This document shows, piece after piece, positions 1,054 to 37,628 of a DNA stretch of 64,000 bases; the first letter of the stretch is position 1, and each line of letters starts with the position of its first letter. A model generated the notes under the pieces. The model did not search any database and had not been told where the DNA came from. It was given only the letters and a program-made list of their open reading frames with translations. A program made the position numbers and the translations under genes. The stretch comes from Candidatus Saccharimonadota bacterium. GTDB taxonomy: Bacteria > Patescibacteriota > Saccharimonadia > UBA4664. The DNA is taken from the NCBI GenBank assembly GCA_019352195.1, contig JACAFG010000002.1, positions 19,120 through 83,119 of the forward strand, read 5' to 3'.

Positions 1054-1596
1054 TCAGCTAGCCGGGGGCGTTGGCTGCTGAATGCGATCGTTCGCCTGTG
1101 GCAGGTGGTCGACCAGCCACGCGAAACCGCGCTTAGTGGGCTCGATGATGAGATCGTAATCGCAGGCGACTTCCTGGTGCTGTGGGGTGCCACTGAAGTC
1201 CAAGGACACTTCGACCAGATGATCACTCTGAAGCGCATAGATCAGTCGGTCGATGGCTCGAAGATCTTTACCGGTGAACTCGGCCAGATCCCACTTGGTT
1301 TGACCACGCAGGTTGCAGATTACCGTCATGACTATGAGCTTGATCTGGTCGTACTCGTAGTCTTCGGTCCGGTACGTGGACGGTGGTCGGTCTACTTGGT
1401 ACTGCGGGATGTAGACGGGAGTCCACGACAGACGGCTGAGCGTGTTGGTGATCAGGTCGAGAAGCTTGCGGCGACGGTCGAGCAGGTTTTGATGCTGGCC
1501 GACGGGGTAGACGATGGCGGCCCATAATACTCCGAGCGCTACGATGAATCCGGCGATGATGAGGCTCGTGAAAACGGGTGATAGATTGGCGAGCAT
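1054..1596 (-). CDS. hypothetical membrane-anchored protein (N-terminal TM helix; possible winged-helix-like C-terminal region)
   Basis: 180-aa ORF with a hydrophobic N-terminus (IIAGFIVALGVLWAAIV). Lies 24 bp downstream of the 1621..1941 ORF on the same strand. The antisense + ORF 1000..1527 looks like Arg-rich noise. Confidence 0.4.
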   Translation of the reverse strand: MLANLSPVFTSLIIAGFIVALGVLWAAIVYPVGQHQNLLDRRRKLLDLITNTLSRLSWTPVYIPQYQVDRPPSTYRTEDYEYDQIKLIVMTVICNLRGQTKWDLAEFTGKDLRAIDRLIYALQSDHLVEVSLDFSGTPQHQEVACDYDLIIEPTKRGFAWLVDHLPQANDRIQQPTPPAS

Positions 1597-1620
1597 GGCC
1601 GTCCTTTTCGAAGTGGGGAG

Positions 1621-1941
1621 CTACAGGATTGAGCCTATGGGGTGCTTGAGGGCGGAGATGCCGGCGTCGGTGATTGTCAGGACGAACGGGCCGTCGGCGT
1701 TGTTGTGATTGATCTGGCCCTGACTGATGAGGGCGTTGGTGGCGCGATTGAACCGGCGGCGAGGTCCGGCGAGACGGTCACGAGCAAACTGCTCGGTGCA
1801 CGTACCGTGGTGGTCATGGATTACGACCAGGATGGCACGCTGATCCATATTGCTGTGGTGCCGACCAACAACATAGGCGACGATTGAAGCTGCAACCACC
1901 AAACCAGCGGCCCACAACATGGCCGTGACGATGAGGGACAT
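1621..1941 (-). CDS. hypothetical small membrane-anchored protein
   Basis: 106 aa with an N-terminal TM segment (IVTAMLWAAGLVVAASIVAYVVG). Forms a two-gene minus-strand unit with 1054..1596. AT-rich divergent promoter region 1942..2075. Confidence 0.4.
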   Translation of the reverse strand: MSLIVTAMLWAAGLVVAASIVAYVVGRHHSNMDQRAILVVIHDHHGTCTEQFARDRLAGPRRRFNRATNALISQGQINHNNADGPFVLTITDAGISALKHPIGSIL

Positions 1942-8791: not shown

Positions 8792-8812
8792 CAAAGTCTA
8801 GCCTGATCTATA

Positions 8813-8842
8813 AAGAGGCTCCTGCGGGAGCCTCTTTCTTGT
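8813..8842 (+). terminator. intrinsic terminator of groESL
   Basis: aagaggctcc-tgcg-ggagcctctt followed by tctt. Confidence 0.75.
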
Positions 8843-8865
8843 TGGTTAAGCCACGACTGATGTAA

Positions 8866-8895
8866 TTGACGACAACTTTTGTGATGTGGTACTGT
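8866..8895 (+). promoter_or_regulatory. putative sigma70-type promoter P1 (TTGACG, 18-nt spacer, extended -10 TGgTACTGT) at the start of the GC-rich non-coding locus
   Basis: aaTTGACGacaacttttgtgatgTGgTACTGTctg. Near-identical architecture to P2 at 9938..9966. Confidence 0.4.
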
Positions 8896-9937
8896 CTGTT
8901 CCATCACGTGGCGTTTATAGCCATAAGAATTTTGACACTTCGGTTAGATTTCTGCCTCGATTGTTCGGCTGATAGCTTCGGTAGTACCGCGGTTGCCAGC
9001 CGAACAAACGAGTGCACCGTTTGTTTTGCCTTTGTCTGCGCGCGCTCGATTTTTGAACGAACGGCGGATAGAGTCCACGCCAGCAATTTCATAGTGAACC
9101 GGGCAACCGGGCCGCTTGAGTTAGTTGGCTGTGAGCTGAGTCGGTGGGCATGTCCATCGGCGTTCATTGACGGGCTGCCTGTAGCTCGCGAAGTCCTCGG
9201 AACAGATACCGAGGCAATCGAACAGCCCCGCACGTAAGTCTGCGCGGCAAAAGGCGCCGGCCGATCATCATATCGGCGGCAAACCGTTGTGCCTCAAGAA
9301 CGTCGGGCGTCATGAAGTAACGTCCCGAAACGGCTTGAGTTCATGTCCTGCGATGGTGTTAGGAGTGAACGGCTTGAACGCTCGTGACCCGACCTTGTAG
9401 TTTGTCCTGGCCCTTCGACCCTGTCCATGTCACTGCGAGGGGCGCTCAGCGCTCAACCAAACCTCCGGCCCGCCGCGGCCACCTGATCCCGTCGATCGCC
9501 GCGAACATGGGATCAATGCAACATTGATTCGCGGCAACTGCTATGTGGATGCGGCGTCGAAGCTGCCGTGTCCTCGGTTGGTGTTGGTTCTCGTTCACAC
9601 CAAGTGCTGTTCGCAGGGCGGACAACACATGATTTCAGCACTGTGCCGAGGCTCTGTCATGCGGCGTATCTTTGCGGCCTGGCCGCGTCTGTGGGACTCA
9701 GACGGGCGAGCCGAACAATTACGGATGGCGCCAAAGATCACGAACAGCGCACGAGAAGTGCTGATTGGCATTGTTGATTAAAGTTAGTACTACGGCCGCC
9801 AGGGCCGGCCCTGCGATAGGGCAAAATTTGGACCGCGCGGTTGGCGGACGGGGTTCGCAAGACCCTCGTCCGCCAACTGACCGCCATTGTGGGCGTTTGT
9901 ACAATTGTACGAGCGCCCTTTTGCTTAACAAAAGTTG

Positions 9938-9966
9938 TTGACAAAGTTAGACTAATATGCTACTGT
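9938..9966 (+). promoter_or_regulatory. putative promoter P2 (TTGACA, 17-nt spacer, extended -10 TGcTACTGT) internal to the non-coding locus
   Basis: gTTGACAaagttagactaataTGcTACTGTtttt, embedded in a local AT-rich patch inside roughly 60 % GC sequence. Confidence 0.4.
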
Positions 9967-10634
9967 TTTTCTCATCTGCCGCTATGGCAGCCCTTTGACA
10001 CCAATCAAGAAACGTTGTTGCCCGACTGCGAGCTACGCAACCTGCGTGGTTTACAGTCGGGCAACACGCAGGTTGCCGACATTGAGATCGCGGTTCGGGA
10101 AGGCCACTGACTGGCCTCAGCTGCGATCCACCACCACCACTTCCACATTCGCCGGCGACTCGACGGGCGTCCCCGTCTACCGGGACACCGGTAGACGGGT
10201 GGCCGGCAGCGCGGCCAGCGGGTTCATGCCCGCGGCCGGCTGATCGGTCTCGCGGCCCAAAAGAATTACGCCTCCTTGGCGTAGCGAGCAAGCAATTCGT
10301 CGGTACTCAGATAAGCAGACAACTGGCCGCTAGGCTGGTCTGATGAACTACTGAGATACGAACGGCGATTTGATCTCGCGTTGTTTGAGCGTCCCTCAGG
10401 TCGGCGGACCTTACTCGCGGCTTGGCACAGTCGACGGTTGCATGACCGTTCATTGCCGGCTGGCTGGAATATAACGGACTCCTCTGAGAGCCATATTCCG
10501 GCCAGTCCCAAACTTCCGCCTCCGGGCGATTCGAAACGCTCGTTGATGAACGCATGTGGCGCTGATCTGGTCCGACGCCTCGGCCGTGGAGGATCGGGCC
10601 GACTAGGCTGCCGTTTGTTTGATCTCAACGAGTG

Positions 10635-10677
10635 CCGGACCGGAGCACACTCCCTGTGATGGGGTGCTCCGGTCCGG
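10635..10677 (+). terminator. long perfect hairpin (14-bp stem): first of two tandem terminator-like structures at the 3' end of the non-coding locus
   Basis: ccggaccggagcac-N15-gtgctccggtccgg. Confidence 0.5.
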
Positions 10678-10718
10678 ACTAGCTTCTTGATTGGTACGTT
10701 TGTACCTCGTTCACCCTC

Positions 10719-10748
10719 GCGGGACCATCTGGTCCCGCTTTTGCGTGT
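10719..10748 (+). terminator. intrinsic terminator (8-bp GC stem plus U-tract)
   Basis: gcgggacc-atct-ggtcccgc followed by ttttgcgtgttttg. Confidence 0.65.
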
Positions 10749-10784
10749 TTTGCGGCAATTATTTTAAAATGCTAGGCTTAGAGT

Positions 10785-11570
10785 ATGGAAATGCCTTCAT
10801 TGTTGAATCAACGTGCCGAAGAGATCTTAACGTTTATTGAGTCCTACCGGGCAGAATATGGTTGGGCGCGGGTCGTTGAGTTGGCGCGTGAGAAGTTTGT
10901 TGAAAATGAAGCTCAGCCGGCGCAGCAAGCCTTGGGCGATTTGCTGCTGCAGGCACGGACCTTGGCGCTGGTTCAAGGGCAGCTCGACGATGATCGGCAC
11001 GCCTTGCACTCGGGCCGGCTGAATCATGAGCAAGACATCAGCATCGGGCATCATTACGAGATGCTGCGCCAGGAAGCGTGTACCTACAACCATCAGTTGC
11101 GCGGTTTTATTGAATCGCACCGCGACAGCGTTGATAGGTATGACCTCACGAGATGGTTGGCGACGGCGAGCGGTGGCCGTCACGCTTGGGCTGAAAGCGA
11201 AATTACCGGGGCGGTGAGTGAAATTGCGCTTCATGCAGCACTGATGGGGTTGCCTGAGCTGGTAGATTTGCGCTACGGCAGCTTGGGTGAAGATTTGCAC
11301 GGCTATGACTTTGTGGCCACATGGCAGGGACGGCTGTTAACGGTTGACGCCAAAACCGGTTATTTTCACCCTTTGACCGAGGAAAAGCATGGTCATGAGC
11401 ATCTGGAAATTCATGTGCCGAGGGATGTAGTGCAGGGCTTTCGGCTAACGAGGAGCGGTTTAGACGATTTACGCCGCGATGTTCGCGGGGCGTTGCGGTT
11501 TAAAGTTGGTGTCGAGCCCCATGCTTCGCACAAGCACTACGCCTTTAAACCGATTGTCGCAACGGCGTAA
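10785..11570 (+). CDS. hypothetical protein (261 aa), no recognisable domain
   Basis: Long ORF with protein-like composition, flanked by GC-rich non-genic sequence on both sides. Confidence 0.5.
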   Translation: MEMPSLLNQRAEEILTFIESYRAEYGWARVVELAREKFVENEAQPAQQALGDLLLQARTLALVQGQLDDDRHALHSGRLNHEQDISIGHHYEMLRQEACTYNHQLRGFIESHRDSVDRYDLTRWLATASGGRHAWAESEITGAVSEIALHAALMGLPELVDLRYGSLGEDLHGYDFVATWQGRLLTVDAKTGYFHPLTEEKHGHEHLEIHVPRDVVQGFRLTRSGLDDLRRDVRGALRFKVGVEPHASHKHYAFKPIVATA

Positions 11571-14021: not shown

Positions 14022-14329
14022 TGTATTCGGAGCTGGTTGAGGAAGCTCAGGCGGCTTATCCGCACATTGAAGCCGGCGAGATGTTTAGCATGGCGTGTTT
14101 GAAACTGGACGACAAAGTGCTGGGCGGCGATTGGCACGGCGATTTTGTGGTCAAATTAAGTGAGGATGGGGCTAAAAAAGCACTGGAAATTACCGGAGCG
14201 GTGCAATTTTCGCCCGCAACAGGGCACGTAATGAAGCAATGGATTGTGGTCCCGGCGGCCGTGAGCGATCGCTGGTTTAAGTTGCTCGAGCAAGCTGTCG
14301 AGTATCGGATGTCGCATGAATACAAGTAA
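14018..14329 (+). CDS. hypothetical protein, TfoX N-terminal-domain-like
   Basis: 103 aa. ATGA overlap with msrB. EMFSMACLKLDDKVLGG...VVKL pattern resembles the TfoX_N fold. Confidence 0.4.
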   Translation: MMYSELVEEAQAAYPHIEAGEMFSMACLKLDDKVLGGDWHGDFVVKLSEDGAKKALEITGAVQFSPATGHVMKQWIVVPAAVSDRWFKLLEQAVEYRMSHEYK

Positions 14330-15086
14330 ACCTTGGGCTTTAATTACGGGAGCATCAGGCGGTATTGGGCTTGAGCTCACTCGGCTGGAGGCGGCTGATG
14401 GTTATAATCTGTTGTTGGTCGCGCGTGATGGGGCCGGTTTATCCAAAGTAGCAGCTGATTTAGCGGCCCATGACCGCCAAATTGATGTACTGGCGGTGGA
14501 TTTGGGTTTGCCGGGTGCCGCGGCCAAGGTAGCCGCGTGGGTGGGTGAGCGTCCGGTGGAGCTGTTGATTAATAATGCTGGTTTTGCCACTCACGGGGCC
14601 GTAGCCGAGATGGATCAAGCTGAGCTAGCGAGCGAAATTGGGGTCAATGTAACTACGCTCACTGAATTGTCACGCTTGATGCTGCCGGGGATGTAGCTCC
14701 GAAAGCGGGGTAAAATTCTCAATTTGGCATCAACGGCCGGTTTTCTGCCGGGTCCAGTGATGGCGGTTTACTATGCTACGAAAGCCTACGTGTTGTCATT
14801 TTCAGTGGCGTTGGCGGATGAGGTTAAACCAGATGGTGTTACGGTAACGGTGTTGTGTCCCGGGCCAACAAGAACCGGCTTTGCGGCGCGTGCCCAGGTG
14901 GAATCGTCACGCTTATTTAGGGGGCATGTGATGGAGGCATCGGTGGTTGCCAAAGCCGGCTACGACGGGTTAAAAAACGGCAAAGTAATAGTGGTGCCGG
15001 GTATCGGCAACAAACTTAATACCTGGGGCATCCGGTTAGTGCCACGAGTGCTAGCGGCCAAAGTGGCGCGACGAGAGCAATCATGA
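14316..15086 (+). pseudogene. short-chain dehydrogenase/reductase (SDR) interrupted by a single in-frame TAG at 14694..14696
   Basis: ORFs 14316..14696 and 14724..15086 are in the same frame. Reading through gives ...[38 protein letters not shown], a canonical SDR core (TGASGGIG glycine loop, YxxxK). Confidence 0.6.
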
Positions 15087-15502
15087 AGGCCTGGATTGGG
15101 GTCGTGGCACGTAGTCATGTCGAGCAGGGAATTCGAGAAAAGATTGCCCAACTGGGGCACGGTACACGAGCGCCATTGGCGCGCCTCAGCCCAGGAGACT
15201 GGCTGATCTACTATTCGTCGCAGTCCGAATATCCCGATGGTGAGCCGGTGCAAGCCTTTACGGCGATCGGACGAGTGCCCGATGATGAAATTTATGAGCA
15301 GGTAACCGAAAGTGGTTTTCACCCGTTTCGACGTCGGGTTGAGTATGTGGAGGCGAAAGAGGCGCCGATTAAACCGTTGTTACCCTATCTGTCGTTTAGT
15401 CGCAACACGTCCAATTGGGGCATGGTGATGCGGCGGGGATTGGTGGAGATTACCATAGAGGATGTGAAGCTGATTGCTGAAGCCATGGGCGCGACAGTTT
15501 AA
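15083..15502 (+). CDS. EVE/PUA-like domain protein (putative modified-base reader)
   Basis: 139 aa. GDWLIYYSS...AIGRV core and C-terminal RRRVEYVEAKEAPIKPLLPYLSF resemble the EVE (PF01878) pattern. Confidence 0.4.
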   Translation: MKAWIGVVARSHVEQGIREKIAQLGHGTRAPLARLSPGDWLIYYSSQSEYPDGEPVQAFTAIGRVPDDEIYEQVTESGFHPFRRRVEYVEAKEAPIKPLLPYLSFSRNTSNWGMVMRRGLVEITIEDVKLIAEAMGATV

Positions 15503-15519
15503 CAATCGGAAGGCCCAAA

Positions 15520-15546
15520 AAACGAGCCATTATGGCTCGTTTTTTA
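15520..15546. terminator. intrinsic terminator (A-tract, hairpin, T-tract; potentially bidirectional)
   Basis: aaaaaacgagccat-tat-ggctcgttttttag. Confidence 0.7.
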
Positions 15547-15810
15547 GTTACCTGAAGGCTCAAATAATTGAGCACTCGGGTAGTGGCCTCATCGAGTCGC
15601 CTGAAGGCGGCCCAGTGAGGCTATCATCACTTTTCCCGGTGATGAACTGTCGGGTGGTGGGCCGGACTACTCGCCCATGAGGGCTAGCTCGCGCGAGGTG
15701 AAGAGGCCGTACCGACTGAGGTCGGTGTTATCTTGTGGTAGTTCTGCGGGGATCCCGATCGGATCGGGGTCGGTCTCTCCCCGGGGAAGCTCGAAGGCGA
15801 GCTCGCTGGA

Positions 15811-15845
15811 TTGACGCATGTGCCTGCACCGCATACACTGTATGC
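15811..15845 (+). promoter_or_regulatory. promoter (TTGACG, 17-nt spacer, TACACT) with an overlapping perfect palindrome operator for the vapBC-like operon; the transcript is predicted leaderless
   Basis: The -10 box lies 6 nt before the ATG. GCATACA-C-TGTATGC palindrome at 15831..15845 straddles the -10 box. Confidence 0.5.
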
Positions 15846-16097
15846 ATGACAAATATTCAATACACCATTCGTAATATTCCCCCCGCGTTGGATCAGGTGA
15901 TCCGTAAGCGCGCGCAGCAATCGGGCAAGTCGTTTAATAAGACGGTTGTCGATTTGTTGGTGCAACAGGCCTTTGGAACGAAGGAGGTGCCGGTTGATGA
16001 TAATTTTGATTGGTTATTCGGGGTTAATACACTTGATCCGTCGTTTGATGAAGCGATTGCGGAACAATCGAAGCCCGATCCAAAGATGTGGGCGTGA
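15846..16097 (+). CDS. type II antitoxin, VapB/ribbon-helix-helix-like (84 aa)
   Basis: Small acidic protein MTNIQYTIRNIPPALDQVIRKRAQQSGKSFNK... Overlaps the downstream PIN-domain gene by 10 nt. Confidence 0.6.
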   Translation: MTNIQYTIRNIPPALDQVIRKRAQQSGKSFNKTVVDLLVQQAFGTKEVPVDDNFDWLFGVNTLDPSFDEAIAEQSKPDPKMWA

Positions 16098-16483
16098 AAT
16101 ACGTTCTCGACACGAGTGCTTTCTCGGCGTTTAATCGGGGCGATGTGCGCTTGGAGCGGTATCTTAGGAGTGAACATGAGATTTTGGTGCCGCTGGTGGT
16201 AATAGCCGAGCTGCGGGCCGGGTTTGCGCTGGGGAGTCGGCGGGCGGAAAATGACCGAATTTTGGAACGGTTATTGAATTCGTCCAATGTAACGGTGGTG
16301 AGCTTAAACGACGAAACGGCTAACGTCTATGCCGATGTTTTTTTACGCCAACGCGAGGTAGGCCGGCCGGTGGGGGCGAATGATATGTGGATTGCGGCTT
16401 CCGCGATTGAGCGTGATTTACCTGTGCTGACGCTTGACCATGATTTTGATGGAATTGTCGGCCTGAAAGTAGTGGAATTGTGA
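16088..16483 (+). CDS. vapC: PIN-domain toxin VapC
   Basis: VLDTSA...D motif and ...ND.WIAA. 131 aa. GTG start overlapping the antitoxin stop. Confidence 0.7.
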   Translation: MGVKYVLDTSAFSAFNRGDVRLERYLRSEHEILVPLVVIAELRAGFALGSRRAENDRILERLLNSSNVTVVSLNDETANVYADVFLRQREVGRPVGANDMWIAASAIERDLPVLTLDHDFDGIVGLKVVEL

Positions 16484-17184
16484 GCGTGACGGCGGTTCAA
16501 GATGAGCTACGTGAGCAAGGCTCACCTCAAAAGGCCCTTGGTTCGGGCGTGTTCTTTAAAACTGGGCCAGGCCAATATGGTGAGGGCGACGTGTTTTTGG
16601 GGGTGACGGTGCCGGAGCAGCGGATTATCGCAAAACGCCATCTGGATTTGAGTGTGAATCAGGTAGAAGAGCTGCTGCAATCCCCGGAGCACGAATTTCG
16701 GATGATGGCGCTGCTCATTTGGACATATCAGTTTGCTAGAGGCGACCTTAGCCAACGTAAAGCAATTTATGACGCTTATCTGGAAAATACGCGCTGGATT
16801 AATAATTGGGATCTGGTCGATGCCAGTGCCGAAATTGTCGGCCAATACATTGAGACCCATGAACGCACGATATTGGACAAGCTGGCCAGGTCGGGCGATA
16901 TCTGGGAGCGGCGGATTGCCATTGTGGCGCCATATTGGTTGATCAAGCAGGGTCAACCTGAGGATACGCTACGGATTGCGGCTCTATTACTGCACGATAA
17001 GCATGATCTTATCCACAAAGCCACCGGCTGGATGCTGCGCGAAGTGGGCAAACGTTGTTCGCAGGCGGTAGAGGAGGGATTTTTACGTGAGCATTACCAC
17101 ACTATGCCGCGGACGATGCTGCGCTACGCCATTGAACGATTTGAGCCGGAACTGAAGCGGGCCTACATGACAGGCGCCGTATGA
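16480..17184 (+). CDS. DNA alkylation repair protein (AlkD/AlkC-like HEAT-repeat glycosylase family)
   Basis: FFKTGPGQYGEGDVFLGVTVPEQR signature of PF08713. 234 aa. ATGA overlap with vapC. Confidence 0.65.
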   Translation: MSVTAVQDELREQGSPQKALGSGVFFKTGPGQYGEGDVFLGVTVPEQRIIAKRHLDLSVNQVEELLQSPEHEFRMMALLIWTYQFARGDLSQRKAIYDAYLENTRWINNWDLVDASAEIVGQYIETHERTILDKLARSGDIWERRIAIVAPYWLIKQGQPEDTLRIAALLLHDKHDLIHKATGWMLREVGKRCSQAVEEGFLREHYHTMPRTMLRYAIERFEPELKRAYMTGAV

Positions 17185-17908: not shown

Positions 17909-17998
17909 TTAGCTGTTATAAGCGAAAACCCCGCTGGCCGGTGAAGGCGAGCGGGGTGTCCGATGTGGCGGTCCATCGGAAGGGAGCGGCGGCGTTTG

Positions 17999-18433
17999 TT
18001 AGTTTGAAGCGGTTGAAGTCTGCGGTGGTACCGACACAGTAGTACTGCTGGTGGCTGGTGACTCGCCGGCGCTGCAGACCTTTGGAACCATTACTGTGGT
18101 CCCAATTGGCAGAATGGTAGCATCGTCACCGGCAAAGCCGTTGCGCAGACGAACCAATTGGGCCCAGCTGCTGGTACTGTCAGAACGACTCCAATCGAAG
18201 CCGGCTTCGCCAACTTCGGCTGGTTGCATGCCGGTCACGAAGTTGATCCAGCTGACCGGTTGGCCGTTGACTTTGATTGGGCCGTTGCAGGCGTACACTG
18301 CCTCCTGCTTTCCAACCGAACTGGTGTCAGGAGAGCAGGCCGACAATCCCAGGGTGAGACTGACGGCTGCGGCCGCTGCCAGGATGAAGCGGACGAAGGG
18401 ACGGTGGGCGGGTCGTGCGGGGGCGATTCTCAT
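17999..18433 (-). CDS. putative secreted lipoprotein
   Basis: Likely start at M48 of the 191-aa six-frame ORF: MRIAPARPAHRPFVRFILAAAAAVSLTLGLSAC with an LSAC lipobox. Confidence 0.45.
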   Translation of the reverse strand: MRIAPARPAHRPFVRFILAAAAAVSLTLGLSACSPDTSSVGKQEAVYACNGPIKVNGQPVSWINFVTGMQPAEVGEAGFDWSRSDSTSSWAQLVRLRNGFAGDDATILPIGTTVMVPKVCSAGESPATSSTTVSVPPQTSTASN

Positions 18434-18545
18434 CGCGGGGCTCCAAGTTGTGGGGTGCGGAATGTACCTTGCTGAGCCTGTGACGGGTGTCGCAGGCTCA
18501 GTGGGGTGCCGGAGATATCGCTCTCCGGCAGGCGTCGAACGCTTA

Positions 18546-18923
18546 CTAGCAAATGACCTCGATATGACCGTCATCGTAGGCTACCAGGAAGACCGGTGGC
18601 TCGATGCCATATTCGTCGGCCAAATCCAAGACAACATCGCGGAGTATCACATTGCCGAACTGCGTTCTCATCCAGGCGTCTTCGGACAAGACAACGGCGG
18701 CCATGGTGCGTTCAGTCCTGTCCAAGATGGACGTGGCCATAATTTGGGCTGTCTGGTCTTGCTTGTGTAGCGGGACGTCGGCGCAAGTCCATTGCTCAAT
18801 GGTCATTGATACTACGTATGTAATCACGACGTCATCTTCCTTGAGGAAGGTGACGAGCTGGGGTAGCTGGTCGGCGTTGATGCCAACTGCTATAAGTCGG
18901 ATGGACGTGGTGGTTGTCTTCAT
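18546..18923 (-). CDS. hypothetical protein (125 aa)
   Basis: Protein-like composition (MKTTTTSIRLIAVGINADQLPQLVTFL...). Upstream AT-rich divergent promoter region 18930..19090. Confidence 0.4.
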   Translation of the reverse strand: MKTTTTSIRLIAVGINADQLPQLVTFLKEDDVVITYVVSMTIEQWTCADVPLHKQDQTAQIMATSILDRTERTMAAVVLSEDAWMRTQFGNVILRDVVLDLADEYGIEPPVFLVAYDDGHIEVIC

Positions 18924-19091
18924 AACGGATCCTTAAGCTGCGTTCGTCGGGCGGCTCCCGATCGATTGCGACACATCATACTGCTTTTGCTCAATTATGT
19001 CAATATTAATATAGTTAATTTTGCAATTTGAATTCAATATTCTGTCACAATTTAACTTTACAAACATATTAAAACGTGCTAAATTTCAGTC

Positions 19092-19901
19092 ATGTCACCC
19101 GATTTACTCATCAAAATGGGGCTCACGCCTGCTCAGGCGCAAACGTATCTCGAACTTGTAAAAGCTGGCAGTTTGACGCCACCCAAGCTCGCGGTCGCCA
19201 TTAATGAGAGCCGGACGACGGCTTATATGGCGTTGGCTAGGTTGGAAGAAGTTGGCTTAGCCATTAAACAAAATGGTGCCAAAAAACAGACCTACGAACC
19301 GGCGAGCCCGTCGGCGCTAGAGAAGTTCTTATCTGATCGCCAACGCGATTTGGCCGAGACGGAGCGGGCCTATCGCGAGGCGCTGCCCAATTTGCTCAGC
19401 TATTACTACACCTATCGCGGTAAGCCCGGCGTACGATTTTTTGAGGGCGGTGATGGATTGGAAAAGCTGTATGAGGACATTTTGCGTACCCGAGCCGAGG
19501 TTGATATTGTTCGCACCCCGGCGGATGAGCTATATTTCGGTGATGGTCGTGATGGCAATACGATTCTCGGTAAATATCTCAACGCGCGGGCAGCATTAGG
19601 GATTGAGTCGCAACTCTTGGCGCCAGTGTTGCCGGGGCCAATGGTGTGGGCGAAGAGCAATGATGAACGGCTGAAGCGGGTGGTTACCTGGTATCCGCCA
19701 AAGGCCTATGAGTCGCCGGTTGAGGTCAATATTTATGGCAATAAAGTGTCGCTTATCTCATTTGGTGACGAGACGATTGGGACGATTATTGAAAGTCCCC
19801 AGATAGCGGCGGCGATGCGAGAGTTGTACGCTATGGCGCAGGTTGGGGCGCGGGCTTTGATGGCTGCGGCCGAATTGGATCAGAAAAGCTCGGATAAATA
19901 G
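19092..19901 (+). CDS. TrmB-family transcriptional regulator
   Basis: N-terminal wHTH (LGLTPAQAQTYLELVKAGSLTPPKLA) plus a C-terminal TrmB-like domain. 269 aa. Confidence 0.5.
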   Translation: MSPDLLIKMGLTPAQAQTYLELVKAGSLTPPKLAVAINESRTTAYMALARLEEVGLAIKQNGAKKQTYEPASPSALEKFLSDRQRDLAETERAYREALPNLLSYYYTYRGKPGVRFFEGGDGLEKLYEDILRTRAEVDIVRTPADELYFGDGRDGNTILGKYLNARAALGIESQLLAPVLPGPMVWAKSNDERLKRVVTWYPPKAYESPVEVNIYGNKVSLISFGDETIGTIIESPQIAAAMRELYAMAQVGARALMAAAELDQKSSDK

Positions 19902-19904
19902 CAA

Positions 19905-19950
19905 AAGGCCCACCGAATGTCCGCGCGGATGCGGAACAAATCGGTGGGCC
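19905..19950 (+). terminator. terminator-like hairpin after the TrmB-family gene
   Basis: ggcccaccga-N24-tcggtgggcc, a 10-bp stem. Confidence 0.45.
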
Positions 19951-19962
19951 CGTGAGAGCGAG

Positions 19963-20385
19963 GTGGTGTCGGCATGGCAGGGGCTGGGGTATAACCGACG
20001 TGGGTTGTGGCTCCATCGGGCGGCTGGGCAGATTGTAGGCCAGTTTGGTGGAGTGATACCGCGCGATCCGGCCGAACTCGTTACGTTACCGGGAATTGGG
20101 CCCAATACAGCTGGTTCGATCGCAGCATTTGCGTACAATTTGCCCGTAGTATTTATAGAAACCAATATTCGGCGCGTGTTTATCCACGAGTTTTTCCCGA
20201 ATGTCGATCATGCTCCGATGGGTCGTGTGGCGACGGTTACCCGCCCGATCTCGACTACACGGAATCTGCGGCGCGACCCAGAGCCCTCTTTGGTTGTATC
20301 CGGAGTCACGGGCGTACGCGACGATCAATTATTACCGTTAATTGAGGCTAGCTTAGACCCCGATGAGCCGAGACAGTGGTACTAG
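19963..20385 (+). pseudogene. remnant of an A/G-specific adenine glycosylase (MutY/HhH-GPD); only the central HhH segment is intact
   Basis: AWQGLGYNRRGLWLHRAAGQIVGQFGGVIPRDPAELVTLPGIGPNTAGSIAAFAY aligns to MutY WSGLGYYARARNLH...LPGVGRSTAGAI. No N-terminal roughly 45 aa. Downstream sequence loses similarity and the 4Fe-4S Cys loop is absent in all frames. Confidence 0.5.
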
Positions 20386-20391
20386 GCTCTC

Positions 20392-20643
20392 ATGGATTAC
20401 GGGAGCTGGCTGGCTTCCCAAGTGCCTAATCCCAACCGCCGTAGCCAGCATTACGCGGTGCAGAGCACGTTTGAAGGCTCGGCGAGGCAGGTACGAGGTG
20501 AACTGTTGCGTCGGGTACTGGTGGGGCCGATGACAACCGCTGAAATTGAGGCTATTGATACGAGAGCGCCGGCCTTGGCCGCCCAACTTGTGAAAGAGGG
20601 CTTTTTGATGGTAGCAGCCGGTTGCTTCCAGATGGTACGATGA
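20392..20643 (+). CDS. hypothetical small protein (83 aa)
   Basis: ORF with winged-helix-like segment LRRVLVGPMTTAEIEAID. Uncertain. Confidence 0.3.
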   Translation: MDYGSWLASQVPNPNRRSQHYAVQSTFEGSARQVRGELLRRVLVGPMTTAEIEAIDTRAPALAAQLVKEGFLMVAAGCFQMVR

Positions 20644-21839: not shown

Positions 21840-22844
21840 ATGTATGAAAGTCTCCACAACCACACGCTGATTTCCGACGGCTCGCAAACTCATTTGGAGG
21901 TATTGGCCAGCGCTCAGGCGGCTGGTTTCGGGGTGATCGCCTTTACTGATCATGACGTGTTTCCTGATACGGCGACGCAAAAACAGCTCCATGATTATGT
22001 CGGGCCAGTGAAGTGGCTCTTGGGGATTGAGTTGTCATGTGGATTGCCAACTGAGCTGGGCGGGAGCGATAAGGGTAATTTGCACGTGCTGGGGTACTTT
22101 TGTGATCCAGACGAGCCCACTTTGAAGGCTTATCTTAAGAATTTGAGCGAGAGCCGGTACGTGCGCATGCGGCGCCAACTTAAGCAAATTAATGAACTTG
22201 GTTTTGATTTAACCGAGAAACAGGTATTGGATGTAGCCGGAATCAGCGCCCCGGGGTCGTTCCATGTGGTGAAGGCATTACTGCAGCTGCCAACGAGCGC
22301 GGGCTTGATCGAACAGCTGCGCCAACAGATGGAGGTAGCGGCTGAGACTGATCCGGAAGTGGCCAAACGCTATAGCAAAATGATGGCCAGTGGGCCGGTT
22401 CAATATCCCTATACGCTGTTTATGCAGTCGAGCTCGTTTATTCCGATGCCACAGGATACGCAGGGTAACGCCATGGTGGATATGGACGCGGCAGTAAAAC
22501 TCATCCGAGGGGCGGGAGGCGTGGCAATGGTGGCCCACTGGTACTTTCAGGAGGATAAATTCTCGCGTTCATATCTGGAGCGGGCGTTGGCGGACGGTCG
22601 TTTGGACGGCGTGGAAACGGCGGTTTTTAACACTCAAAATGGTGACGCCGACTGTACTGACGCCATCAACTATCTGGTAACATTGGCCGAGACGAATAAT
22701 TACGCTCAGGTTATGGGGATCGATGGCCATTATGAGCGTGATTTTGAGATCTTTAAGGCCTCAGGCCAGGCCGAACGGTCAATTGGTCAAACTAAGGCCT
22801 TAATTAAGCGATTTTCACCTAATTTAACCGAAAGCAATTATTGA
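21840..22844 (+). CDS. PHP-domain phosphoesterase, TrpH/YciV (RNase AM)-like, paralog 1
   Basis: MYESLHNHTLISDGS...AFTDHD PHP motifs. 334 aa. Confidence 0.65.
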   Translation: MYESLHNHTLISDGSQTHLEVLASAQAAGFGVIAFTDHDVFPDTATQKQLHDYVGPVKWLLGIELSCGLPTELGGSDKGNLHVLGYFCDPDEPTLKAYLKNLSESRYVRMRRQLKQINELGFDLTEKQVLDVAGISAPGSFHVVKALLQLPTSAGLIEQLRQQMEVAAETDPEVAKRYSKMMASGPVQYPYTLFMQSSSFIPMPQDTQGNAMVDMDAAVKLIRGAGGVAMVAHWYFQEDKFSRSYLERALADGRLDGVETAVFNTQNGDADCTDAINYLVTLAETNNYAQVMGIDGHYERDFEIFKASGQAERSIGQTKALIKRFSPNLTESNY

Positions 22845-23854
22845 TGTACGAATCGCTTCACAATCACACTATTACGTCCGACGGCAGCCAAACTTATCTG
22901 GAGGTGCTGGAAACGGCGCACGAATTTGGCTTTAAGGTGGTAGCTTTTACCGACCACGACGCGTTACCGGACGAAGCGGGACTTAAAGCCTTGGCCTATT
23001 ACGATGGACCGGTAAAGTGGCTATTGGGGTGCGAAATCTCGAGTGGATTGCCTAAAGAACTGGGCGGTGGACCAACAGGATCGCTGCACGTGTTGGGTTT
23101 GTTTACGGATCCCGATAACGAAGCGCTGCGCGAACACTGCCGCCGGGCACAAGAAGCACGTACCGAACGTATGGAGCAAATGGTAGCTAACTTGCAGCGT
23201 GTCGGACTAACGATTAGTGTGAAGGATTGTTTGGCACAGTCGGGCGGTGAAAGTGTCGGTAGGCTTCATATTGCCACCGCCATTTTGGCCAACGAGGAAA
23301 ACGGTCCGGTAATCGACCAAATGGTGGCTGACATGGCAGAAGCCGCCAAGTCCGATCCAGCGGTCGCGATGCACTACATGCGCCTGATGGAACGTGATCG
23401 CACCGATTACCCGTTCCAGCTGTTTTTGTCGCAGGATTCATTTATCCAGGGCGTGTATGTTGATTATCTGTATAACGTCGATTTTGATGATTCGGTTAAG
23501 CTGATTCGTGATGCCGGCGGGGTGGCAGTCATTGCGCACTGGTTTACGATTGCGAACTCGATTGATTTGGCGATGCTTGAGGGCATGTTAAAAGACGGCC
23601 GTATCGACGGCATCGAAATTATGGGCAAGCCCAACAACGGCGATGCCCAAAAAGCTGCACCTAAGCTACGTGAGCTGGCCGCTAAAACTGGGTGCCTGGC
23701 CACGTACGGGGTAGACGGCCATAGTTTTGGGCAAATGCGAACCTTTAGCTCCGATCGTAATTTGTGCGATGAAACAATTGGTCAGACGCAGGACCTCATA
23801 AAACGCTTTAAGCCCGACTTGGGCTGGACCAACTTCGAAGACGGCCTGAAATAA
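22841..23854 (+). CDS. PHP-domain phosphoesterase, TrpH/YciV-like, paralog 2 (tandem duplicate)
   Basis: MMYESLHNHTITSDGS...AFTDHD; collinear with paralog 1. ATGA overlap. Confidence 0.65.
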   Translation: MMYESLHNHTITSDGSQTYLEVLETAHEFGFKVVAFTDHDALPDEAGLKALAYYDGPVKWLLGCEISSGLPKELGGGPTGSLHVLGLFTDPDNEALREHCRRAQEARTERMEQMVANLQRVGLTISVKDCLAQSGGESVGRLHIATAILANEENGPVIDQMVADMAEAAKSDPAVAMHYMRLMERDRTDYPFQLFLSQDSFIQGVYVDYLYNVDFDDSVKLIRDAGGVAVIAHWFTIANSIDLAMLEGMLKDGRIDGIEIMGKPNNGDAQKAAPKLRELAAKTGCLATYGVDGHSFGQMRTFSSDRNLCDETIGQTQDLIKRFKPDLGWTNFEDGLK

Positions 23855-27668: not shown

Positions 27669-28299
27669 GTGGGAAATGACGCATACAAATGGGTCCGTAA
27701 GAATGATGAGGAAATTATTCTCCGTTTTGCTGATCCAAGGATAATAAGGCCAGTTGAAAATCCAATTACTTTTTTATGGCTGGCTCGCCCGGCGCCGGTA
27801 AGACTGAATGGGCACGTTCATTGATCGTCAACCTCGCAAATGACAAAGAAGAACCGACAGAGTTTGTTCACATAGACCCTGACGAAATAAGAAAGCTATT
27901 TGATGGCTATAATGGCACAAATGTTTCGGAATTTACTCGAGCAACTAGTACTGCGGTAGGACGTATTCTTGATCGGACAAATCGTCTTGGACAAAACGTC
28001 ATTGTCGACGGGACCTTATCCAGGTATGATGCCGTGGCGAAAGACGTTGATTCTTATATAGGAAACATGGTCGGAGCACAGTAATTTTCTTTGTATACCA
28101 AAAGCCGGAATTAGCTTGGTATTTCACGAAGGCAAGGGCAGCTGACCCTGAAGACGGGCGCGTTGTTGATAAGCTGACATCGATTGCCGCATACGTGTAG
28201 TCTATCCAAAATGCCAACGCCTTAAAGCGTAAATACGGATCACATATACAACTTCATATCATTGAAAAAGATGCGTTGAATAGGGTAAAAAAGGTTTAA
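27669..28299 (+). pseudogene. zeta-toxin-like / AAA_33-type P-loop kinase gene, degraded by two frameshifts and one in-frame TAG
   Basis: GTG at 27669 after an aggaga RBS gives MGNDAYKWVRKNDEEIILRFADPRIIRPVENPITF. A T6 run at 27770..27775 shifts frame into MAGSPGAGKTEWARSLIV... (Walker A), continuing to 28084. Protein-like continuation lies in a third frame from 28087 (FFVYQKPELAWYFTKARAADPEDGRVVDKLTSIAAYV). An in-frame TAG at 28198 is followed by SIQNANALKRKYGSHIQLHIIEKDALNRVKKV, ending at 28299. Confidence 0.5.
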
Positions 28300-30043: not shown

Positions 30044-30126
30044 TGATTTTCTTTACTAATTTCTAACAAGCTATCATTCTTTCTTACAGCCGGCTTAGCG
30101 CCGGATGACCTCGAGATAGGACTAGC

Positions 30127-30978
30127 ATGATCGTGACTGATATCTCGCCTGCTCGGTGGGCGACGCTGATTGACGTTCTTGGCATGACCACCGCGCCGGA
30201 TCGTACGCGATTGGTTCAGATGCTTGAAGGAGACAAGCCTTTGGGCGTCATTGGGGCCGGCTCGGATAGCGGCCAACTGCTCCTCGTCCTCATGTCGATG
30301 CGCAAATACCGCGAACTCGTGCGTACCGCTGATGTCGACATTCCGCTGTTTGTGCCGGTATCACTGAGCGATCTGGCTCCCGAGGCGTTATCGCGGCTAG
30401 AAACGTTTGGCATGGTCGATGCCGACGGTAACCCGCGGTGCGATATTTCCACCGTAGAACTGGCCGGCTGGTTTCGTAACCGGACGTACGCCCGAGCGCG
30501 TAAGGACAACGACAATCTGGTCTTGCCGGAGAATTGTCCGGATACGTGGGCGCCGGCATCAGGGGTGTCGCGTGCTCATGTCGCAATGGCGGGTGATGTC
30601 GGGATGTGCCGTCACTCAACTCGCGATGTCCGTGCCATTGGCAACGTGTATAAGTGGTTCGACCTCGACCTCGTGCCGGTCGGGGGTTCGGTGTGGCGAC
30701 TGAGCCATAACCGCACGCTATGGCACTTCACCCGCTGCTCCCACGGTTGGTCGGTGCTGTGTGTGCCACATGCCTATTGGCCGGAGCCGCCTAGCAAGTG
30801 CAGCAATATTGGATCGCGTTGGTCTCGGAAGAATGGCACAGGCCGTTCTTCCGAGACCAATTGTCGTAATAAAGGTATAATTAAGATCTATGGCACAAGC
30901 AAAAGAGCGACTAGTACTAGTAGATGGGTCGGCGGTGTTTTACCGCGGCTATTACGCGATTCCGCATTTATCAAATAA
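30127..30978 (+). CDS. hypothetical protein in a GC-rich segment; the C-terminal part is probably not real because it overlaps the polA start by 89 nt
   Basis: The first roughly 140 aa are protein-like. The tail is Trp/Cys/Arg-rich and runs across the polA RBS and start. Confidence 0.3.
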   Translation: MIVTDISPARWATLIDVLGMTTAPDRTRLVQMLEGDKPLGVIGAGSDSGQLLLVLMSMRKYRELVRTADVDIPLFVPVSLSDLAPEALSRLETFGMVDADGNPRCDISTVELAGWFRNRTYARARKDNDNLVLPENCPDTWAPASGVSRAHVAMAGDVGMCRHSTRDVRAIGNVYKWFDLDLVPVGGSVWRLSHNRTLWHFTRCSHGWSVLCVPHAYWPEPPSKCSNIGSRWSRKNGTGRSSETNCRNKGIIKIYGTSKRATSTSRWVGGVLPRLLRDSAFIK

Positions 30979-36145: not shown

Positions 36146-36187
36146 AATATCTTGATTATACCAGCAAAATGCTTAGGCGAAAGAGGG

Positions 36188-36484
36188 TTATTCGCTGATT
36201 TCGACGCCGCGCCAGAAAGCCACGTAGCCAGCAAAATCTTGGCCAACTTTTTCGGCTGCGCCTTCTTTGGGGTGTTCGTAGGAAAAAGCGGCGTCTTTGA
36301 GCTCCTGCCCTTCGACCATCAGGGAGTAGTAGGTACAGACACCTTTCCAGGGGCAGGTGTAGGGCGTGTCGGACGGTACAAAAAACTCGCGGTGAACACT
36401 TGCCGGCGGAAAGTACTCGTTGCCTTCGATAGTGATAGTCTCGGGTGCTTCGGCAATTACTTCGCCGTTCCATACTGCTTTCAT
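36188..36484 (-). CDS. DUF427-domain protein
   Basis: MKAVWNGEVIAEA...IEGNEYFPPASV...CPWKGVCTYYSL...VAFW pattern of PF04248. Confidence 0.55.
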   Translation of the reverse strand: MKAVWNGEVIAEAPETITIEGNEYFPPASVHREFFVPSDTPYTCPWKGVCTYYSLMVEGQELKDAAFSYEHPKEGAAEKVGQDFAGYVAFWRGVEISE

Positions 36485-36578
36485 GATATGCCTTTTTAGT
36501 TGGTTCTATCTTACCTGAGAACAGATAATAATTCAGCCCGAGCAACGAATTGCTCGGGCTGAATGGACTGCGGACTGA

Positions 36579-37496
36579 CTAGAGCTGGTGGCGGTGGACT
36601 GCACGTGTCCAGAGTTCCTGGAGGTGCTGGTACGCATCCCAGGTGGGATTTATACCATATCTTACCGCCACAACGCCCCGCGGAAGACTAGGATCTAAGG
36701 CGGCGACTTGCGCGAACCACTGCTGAACTTGGCTAACGGACATCGGTTCGTGAATCGACAATACGGGTCGTCTGCTAACCGCGTGCCGGGCTATAACCTC
36801 GGCATCCATTTGTACGACCCGTCGGGCGGCCAGCGCCTGACCCATCTCCGAGAGCGGTCGATGTTTCGCCGCCCTTTTGTGCCGCTTGGTGCTACGGGAG
36901 TAGTGCATCCGAGCCGATCTTGGAGACCGGTGATGAGTGTCATTGGTCTCTTGCTGGCCAGTCATGATGAGACGGACCATGAAGTCGTAGATGGCCGTGA
37001 CGAGTATGAGGAGCATTGATCTCATCGCGTCCGACCGGTCAAGCCACATGTTTGATGCACGGGCCATGGCCGAATTGTCTTCATCCACGCGCGCGTGGCG
37101 TCCAGGTGCGGGCGGCCAAACGAGATGCTCGGGTTGGGGCAGACCTGGGAACGGACCGTCGAAGTAGTTGTGCTCGACGATAGCCGTCCGGATCAGCCTA
37201 GCCCGTCTCATCTGGCGGGGACTCGGCACATGGTCGAAGATTTGCCCTGCTCGGAAGATGGTGGTCCTGAAGATCACCCAACCTAGTGCTATCAGATCCA
37301 TGATGATGAAGATGGGGCTGAACCGGAACAGCGGAATAGCCTCGCCAACACCGCCAAAGATGTAGAATCCGGACAGAACTACGACCAGAATGGCGAAATT
37401 GCGCCGGGCTTCGTGGTAGTGGGTCAAGATGCTCTTGGCCCACAAGGCAGGGTAGTCGGCTTCGGTCGGGAGTTCATCCCGGTAGGAGATTTTCAT
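36579..37496 (-). CDS. hypothetical membrane protein (2 N-terminal TM helices plus a soluble C-terminal domain)
   Basis: Start taken at M16 (MKISYRDEL...). Hydrophobic segments ILVVVLSGFYIFGGV and IFIIMDLIALGWVIF. Confidence 0.45.
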   Translation of the reverse strand: MKISYRDELPTEADYPALWAKSILTHYHEARRNFAILVVVLSGFYIFGGVGEAIPLFRFSPIFIIMDLIALGWVIFRTTIFRAGQIFDHVPSPRQMRRARLIRTAIVEHNYFDGPFPGLPQPEHLVWPPAPGRHARVDEDNSAMARASNMWLDRSDAMRSMLLILVTAIYDFMVRLIMTGQQETNDTHHRSPRSARMHYSRSTKRHKRAAKHRPLSEMGQALAARRVVQMDAEVIARHAVSRRPVLSIHEPMSVSQVQQWFAQVAALDPSLPRGVVAVRYGINPTWDAYQHLQELWTRAVHRHQL

Positions 37497-37628
37497 ATTG
37501 GTCCTTTGGTCGCAGGTAGGTGCAGGAGAGCAGTAAAGCATTTATATCATGTATTGAGTAATAATACAATGTCTGGCTGCCGAACATGTCCTGTTTGAGC
37601 TATAATTACCAGATAGAAGGATGGCGTT

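Follow-up and report, generated by a model that had tools for sequence, protein, structure and literature searches.

An SDR gene interrupted by a single amber codon, a probable recent pseudogene in a conserved Saccharibacteria gene cluster

The window, which is the whole 64-kb stretch of DNA that was analysed, carries on its forward strand what appears to be a pseudogene of a classical short-chain dehydrogenase/reductase (SDR, adh_short) at 14316..15086, consisting of 256 codons and a terminal TGA. Its start overlaps an upstream gene of 103 aa by 14 nt, and its terminal stop overlaps the ATG of a downstream EVE-domain gene, in the sequence ATGA at 15083..15086. When the interval is translated there is only one internal stop, the amber codon TAG at 14694..14696 on the same strand, which is codon 127, and no second lesion was found in the gene. 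The 126 codons before the stop (14316..14693, forward strand) encode the N-terminal, cofactor-binding half of a Rossmann fold and are all translatable from the native start, while the 129 C-terminal codons after it (14697..15086, forward strand) are predicted to be untranslated and are still conserved. The two ORFs visible here, 14316..14696 (126 aa) and 14724..15086 (120 aa), lie in one shared frame, and the first-pass annotation was right to join them into a single SDR gene with the TAG as its only lesion. With an X placed at the stop, residues 7-192 of the translation match positions 2-189 of the 195 in the Pfam profile adh_short, PF00106 (E = 9.3e-41; 139.9 bits, gathering cut-off 26.6). 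Since this single match crosses the stop, a chance juxtaposition of two ORFs is excluded, and the stretch is one gene and not two neighbours. The 126-aa fragment alone also matches PF00106, as well as PF08659 and PF13561.

The cofactor loop and the YxxxK motif, which had been described as intact, are indeed so. On the forward strand the cofactor motif TGASGGIG is present at codons 11-18 (14346..14369) and NNAG at codons 86-89 (14571..14582), and the catalytic residues Ser139 (14730..14732), Tyr152 (14769..14771) and Lys156 (14781..14783) are all in the part downstream of the stop. The residues T11, G12, S14, G16, G18, N86, N87, A88, G89, S139, Y152 and K156 are invariant in our alignment of homologues (A1). 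The local peptide that had been given for the stop site, '...LPGM-x-ERGSGKI...', is wrong; the actual one (16 protein letters, not shown) reads differently. In terms of the SDR fold, the TAG falls at the end of helix alpha4, right before strand beta5. The best solved structure for the protein is PDB 4bmv (E = 1.7e-27, residues 3-230), in which the residue equivalent to codon 127 is Val. This short-chain dehydrogenase and the actinorhodin ketoreductase 1x7g belong to the same fold family as the SDR of the window, but their sequence kinship with it is distant and gives no substrate for it. The best NCBIfam model, the mycolate reductase NF040690, scored 169.5 bits, below its cut-off of 380. A functional SDR has an uninterrupted frame of about 250 residues, and here the frame is broken at codon 127; judged from its sequence, the gene is a classical SDR by descent and not a functional member of the family.

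Two intact orthologues from Saccharibacteria show the surroundings in which this gene normally occurs. The closest full-length relative, P0001 (locus L002, ENA ERZ26273096, a 1,090,472-bp contig), has 65% identity and 252 aa, and a more distant orthologue, P0003 (locus L090, JGI 3300056977, an 839,971-bp contig), has 55% identity over its full length and 253 aa. The neighbourhood of P0001 consists of genes for a SIS isomerase, MsrB, a small protein, an EVE-domain protein, the SDR, a NUDIX protein, YjbR, an HhH-GPD glycosylase, a PHP protein, DnaG, sigma-70, a PurF-like protein and PolA, and that of P0003 of SIS, MsrB, the SDR, YjbR, an unnamed gene and HhH-GPD, with DnaG further on. As the SDR is intact in both, it is a conserved member of a Saccharibacteria cluster. 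The window shares the SIS isomerase, MsrB, YjbR, HhH-GPD glycosylase and DnaG neighbours with these two loci, and its SDR has the same motifs, but near EVE and NUDIX its genes are arranged differently, and it carries extra, inserted genes (an RHH-PIN pair, a DNA alkylation repair gene and a TrmB-like block).

Some of these differences can be described more closely. In the interval 15083..17184 the window has the SDR followed by EVE, whereas the P0001 contig has EVE followed by the SDR, and between EVE and NUDIX the window carries an RHH antitoxin and PIN toxin pair (15846..16483) and a DNA-alkylation-repair gene (16480..17184), both absent from the P0001 contig. From the sequences compared, this points to a local rearrangement together with gene gain. 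Further along, two adjacent PHP-domain-like genes at 21840..23854 (334 and 337 aa) have 39% and 84% identity to the single PHP protein of the P0001 contig, and are by sequence comparison a tandem paralogue pair here as against one copy there. The PurF-like gene and PolA are separated by about 850 nt (30044..30889), as compared to about 50 nt in the P0001 contig, and a 283-aa ORF at 30127..30978 overlaps the start of PolA. In another part of the window, 9238..10784 (about 1.5 kb), public gene calls give only a 40-aa ORF. With a GC content of 57-58% and almost no GC skew, that interval stands apart from its flanks; its ORFs 9947..10291 and 10266..10628, both on the reverse strand, have no Pfam match, and a permissive Rfam scan of 8800..10800 gave one chance-level match.

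The codon that the TAG has replaced can be judged from the homologues. In P0001 the aligned codon is ATA (Ile), and P0003 has another sense codon at this position. Among 17 aligned homologues the column holds Leu in nine, Ile in seven and Val in one, and among 81 homologous metagenome loci it holds Leu in 43, Ile in 19, Val in 17, and Met and Gly in one each, so that Leu, Ile or Val occupies the site in 17 of 17 proteins and in 79 of 81 loci. None of the 81 loci has a stop at the aligned site or any other in-frame stop, and the best 120 protein matches to the SDR are all full length, 251-280 aa. The first-pass annotation had expected TGG, CAG, GAG or TAC as the orthologous codon; the comparison, when made, pointed elsewhere, to the aliphatic residues. 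TTG is the only aliphatic codon one step away from TAG. It is also the commonest Leu codon of the window, with 26% of the Leu codons, and accounts for 11 of the 31 within the SDR gene. The most parsimonious history would thus be a change of TTG (Leu) into TAG by one T-to-A transversion. The ancestral codon has been deduced from distant homologues, because no relative above 65% identity is present in the collections searched. The gene has what defines a nonsense pseudogene: its conserved domain is cut by a premature stop at a site where the orthologues have a sense codon.

It is conceivable that the gene has been split rather than broken: two proteins, one of 126 aa that begins at the ATG at 14316 and one of 108-120 aa that begins at the ATG at 14760 or the TTG at 14724, would then be made independently and come together as an active enzyme. 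Each half is an open frame, and gene callers do predict the two of them, the downstream one as a 108-aa ORF from 14760. By eye, no obvious Shine-Dalgarno sequence precedes either of these two candidate internal starts, and the break separates helix alpha4 from strand beta5 within one and the same Rossmann domain. Neither the homologous loci, all free of internal stops, nor the full-length protein matches offer a parallel, and the split would be unique to the genome of the window. A working two-part enzyme is therefore hardly believable.

A single-base substitution in a metagenome-assembled genome, which is the source of the SDR sequence, is the sort of difference that a consensus could hide. 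The window is identical to contig JABBYD010000045.1 (119,055 bp) of GCA_017884045.1 on the reverse strand, with window position x at contig position 99929 - x, and the amber codon is found there on the deposited strand as CTA at 85233..85235. In an independent Logan assembly of SRR11551193, one contig agrees with the window at every one of the 7,408 bases retrieved (100% identity), TAG included. Because this assembly is base-identical across the TAG, an assembler error is unlikely. At NCBI the neighbouring proteins carry the name Candidatus Saccharibacteria bacterium, and a second GenBank record (a 244,848-bp contig with proteins MBW40612xx and HJC99_ locus tags) has identical neighbouring proteins and no SDR protein. 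The 102-aa upstream protein is there HJC99_01485 (MBW4061224), the EVE protein is MBW4061225, and the RHH protein is HJC99_01500 (MBW4061226). Between HJC99_01485 and HJC99_01500 there are two locus tags (01490 and 01495) and one protein, and no RNA gene. The SDR would hence be represented by a locus tag to which no protein belongs, as in the records that the NCBI pipeline makes of pseudogenes, and the numbering implies that NCBI already treats the gene as one. The literature gave nothing on JABBYD, SRR11551193 or GCA_017884045.

If the stop came from a sequencing or consensus error, or were one allele, minor or major, in a mixed population, the organism, or most of its cells, would have an intact SDR with a sense codon at position 127. 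The two agreeing assemblies may derive from the same reads, in which case a systematic read error could be present in both. Against this, two different assemblers agree on an identical sequence over 7.4 kb, and the second GenBank record likewise lacks the SDR protein. Substitution errors in a short-read consensus are rare. Neither has an intact, near-identical allele turned up: a collection of about 15 billion proteins, which includes Logan assemblies, has 65% identity as its best match and contains both SDR fragments as singleton clusters, the only match in GTDB genomes is an unrelated SDR of Opitutaceae with 32% identity, and the 80 loci from JGI metagenomes are all at or below 54% identity, of use only for the count of residues at the site. 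We consider an error or a mixed population improbable, and the assembly artefact that had been put forward as one of three readings is disfavoured by the Logan contig and by the locus-tag numbering.

The SDR is not the only decayed gene in the window. At about 19948..20643 on the forward strand there is a remnant of an HhH-GPD (MutY-like) glycosylase gene with several lesions, which gene callers divide into a 140-aa 'HHH' protein and an 83-aa ORF. The ~70 codons with which both orthologues begin are missing, and a search of the whole window for this N-terminal part gave no significant match, relaxed thresholds included. At 20383..20385 a TAG has taken the place of a Tyr that is present in both orthologues (in WYYALMDYG; the codon is TAC in P0001's contig), and at 20209..20310 there is a 102-nt in-frame insertion that does not recur elsewhere in the window. 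Between YjbR and the glycosylase lies a block of about 2 kb, 17909..19960, that is absent from the P0001 contig; it contains the ORFs 17999..18433 and 18546..18923, both on the reverse strand, and a TrmB-like gene at 19092..19901. On its right side the block ends just where the glycosylase is truncated at its 5' end, which suggests an insertion or deletion event. A mutator signature from the loss of a MutY-like enzyme was considered, but the inferred changes are T>A, and C>G or T>G, and not the expected G:C>T:A.

The third decayed gene is a remnant of a Zeta-toxin/AAA_33 kinase gene at 27776..~28300, forward strand, with a frameshift near 28055-28085 and a TAG at 28198..28200. Its 102-aa ORF corresponds to positions 21-116 of the Pfam Zeta_toxin profile, and the match resumes in another frame (124-188) before it reaches the TAG; once the frame is conceptually repaired, the score goes up from 62 to 97 bits. 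The identical 102-aa ORF, flanked by the same genes, is present on the Logan contig. Three other same-frame ORF pairs, 36156..37541 and 1054..1941 on the reverse strand and 9185..9781 on the forward strand, gave no sign of one protein continuing when translated.

All three in-frame stops, in the SDR, the glycosylase and the Zeta-toxin gene, are TAG, and the sequence 3' of the SDR stop is perfectly conserved. Both observations could be expected if TAG were decoded, by readthrough, by an amber-suppressor tRNA or by reassignment, and a full-length SDR were still made. If mutation is taken to be uniform and the codon usage of the window is applied, 47% of the one-step nonsense changes should give TAG, so three out of three has p ~0.10; as two of the three genes also have other lethal lesions, the argument that stops which are all TAG signify recoding was rejected. 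Furthermore, TAG ends 18 of the 67 ORFs of at least 100 aa in the window (~27%), and in DnaG and the PurF-like gene it stands exactly at the orthologous C-termini, where the P0001 contig has TAA. Going by these sequences, TAG is a genuine terminator in the genome that carries the broken SDR.

The in-frame TAGs are confined to three accessory genes, of which the other two, with a 5' truncation and a frameshift, are truly dead. Among the housekeeping genes checked (GroEL, DnaG, sigma-70, PolA, PNPase, RNase J and FtsK) there is none, and their ORFs are uninterrupted; recoding would be expected to place TAGs in intact essential genes, and to replace the same residue each time. Instead the replaced residues differ, Leu/Ile/Val in the SDR and Tyr in the glycosylase, which does not agree with a single reassignment. 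Nor is the SDR stop conserved at its site in any orthologue or homologue. No tRNA with anticodon CUA was found in the 64-kb window, where the only tRNA, and the only Rfam hit, is tRNA-Ser(GGA). The RNA fold of the 106 nt around and after the SDR stop was no better than that of shuffled controls (z = -1.22), and this lack of significance leaves no readthrough- or PYLIS-like element. A weak termination context was also proposed, the stop being TAG-C, and was rejected: among the genuine TAG terminators of the window no context is commoner than TAG-C, and 8 of 14 are followed by C. Amber recoding systems, such as pyrrolysine, suppressor tRNAs and TAG-reassigned phages and bacteria, thus share with this gene only an in-frame TAG in a conserved enzyme. 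They differ from it in that the SDR TAG is not conserved in relatives, that TAG is used as a true stop, that the gene has neither a recoding RNA signal nor, in the 64-kb window, a recoding tRNA, and that the replaced residue is an ordinary Leu, Ile or Val.

Readthrough had been left as one of the three possible readings, and it found no support here; that the TAG is decoded to give a full-length SDR is very unlikely. Still less probable is a partial suppression of TAG in this Saccharibacteria lineage, by a suppressor tRNA or leaky termination, with the SDR made at a low level, even though it would explain both the three TAG-only in-frame stops and the perfectly conserved downstream half. No stop-codon reassignment is known in Saccharibacteria, and readthrough of the SDR TAG, if true, would be notable for that reason.

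The remaining reading of the three, a very recent nonsense mutation, is the one that stood. The part downstream of the SDR stop keeps all 31 of the columns that are invariant in the homologues, and when it is compared with 16 outgroups its mean identity is 60.6%, as against 57.1% for the intact P0001. One lesion, the 31 preserved columns and a divergence no higher than that of the intact orthologue give no sign of relaxed constraint, and imply that the mutation is recent. The gene is very probably an ordinary recent nonsense pseudogene of an accessory gene, a case of gene decay and not of recoding.

A likely course of events can be outlined. A T-to-A transversion would have turned codon 127 of the SDR in the cluster from TTG (Leu) into TAG, and since then only the residues up to 126, where helix alpha4 ends, would be translated from the native start. 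The truncated product would be the nucleotide-binding half of the Rossmann fold, without beta5, Ser139, Tyr152 and Lys156. With beta5 and the catalytic residues missing, it is to be expected that no active enzyme is made, and the sequence predicts a loss of function of the SDR. Translational coupling to the downstream EVE gene has probably been lost as well, because the ATG of that gene overlaps the normal stop of the SDR. Since two other genes in the same 64 kb have decayed, the event fits an ongoing gene decay in the lineage.

Pseudogenes are reported to make up ~5-10% of the genes in MAGs of CPR (Parcubacteria) (PMC11188291), and the three decayed genes among ~70 here are in line with that proportion. 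The broken SDR resembles the nonsense pseudogenes of reduced or symbiotic bacteria, those in CPR/Patescibacteria MAGs among them, with one premature stop in a conserved accessory gene and decayed genes nearby; the genome is also small (its relatives have ~0.84-1.09 Mb), and the pseudogene is apparently flagged by the NCBI annotation. Nothing essential sets it apart from other reduced-genome nonsense pseudogenes, except its very young age, as it has a single lesion and has not decayed downstream. It is an already known kind of feature. For the annotation, the finding means that the two ORFs should be given as one SDR pseudogene, and not as the two short 'SDR-like' proteins of automatic gene callers. 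Taken with the glycosylase and Zeta-toxin remnants, it shows an ongoing loss of genes at a conserved, stress- and repair-related locus of a Saccharibacteria genome. Such loss is expected in the reduced genomes of episymbionts, and the significance of this instance beyond annotation is small.
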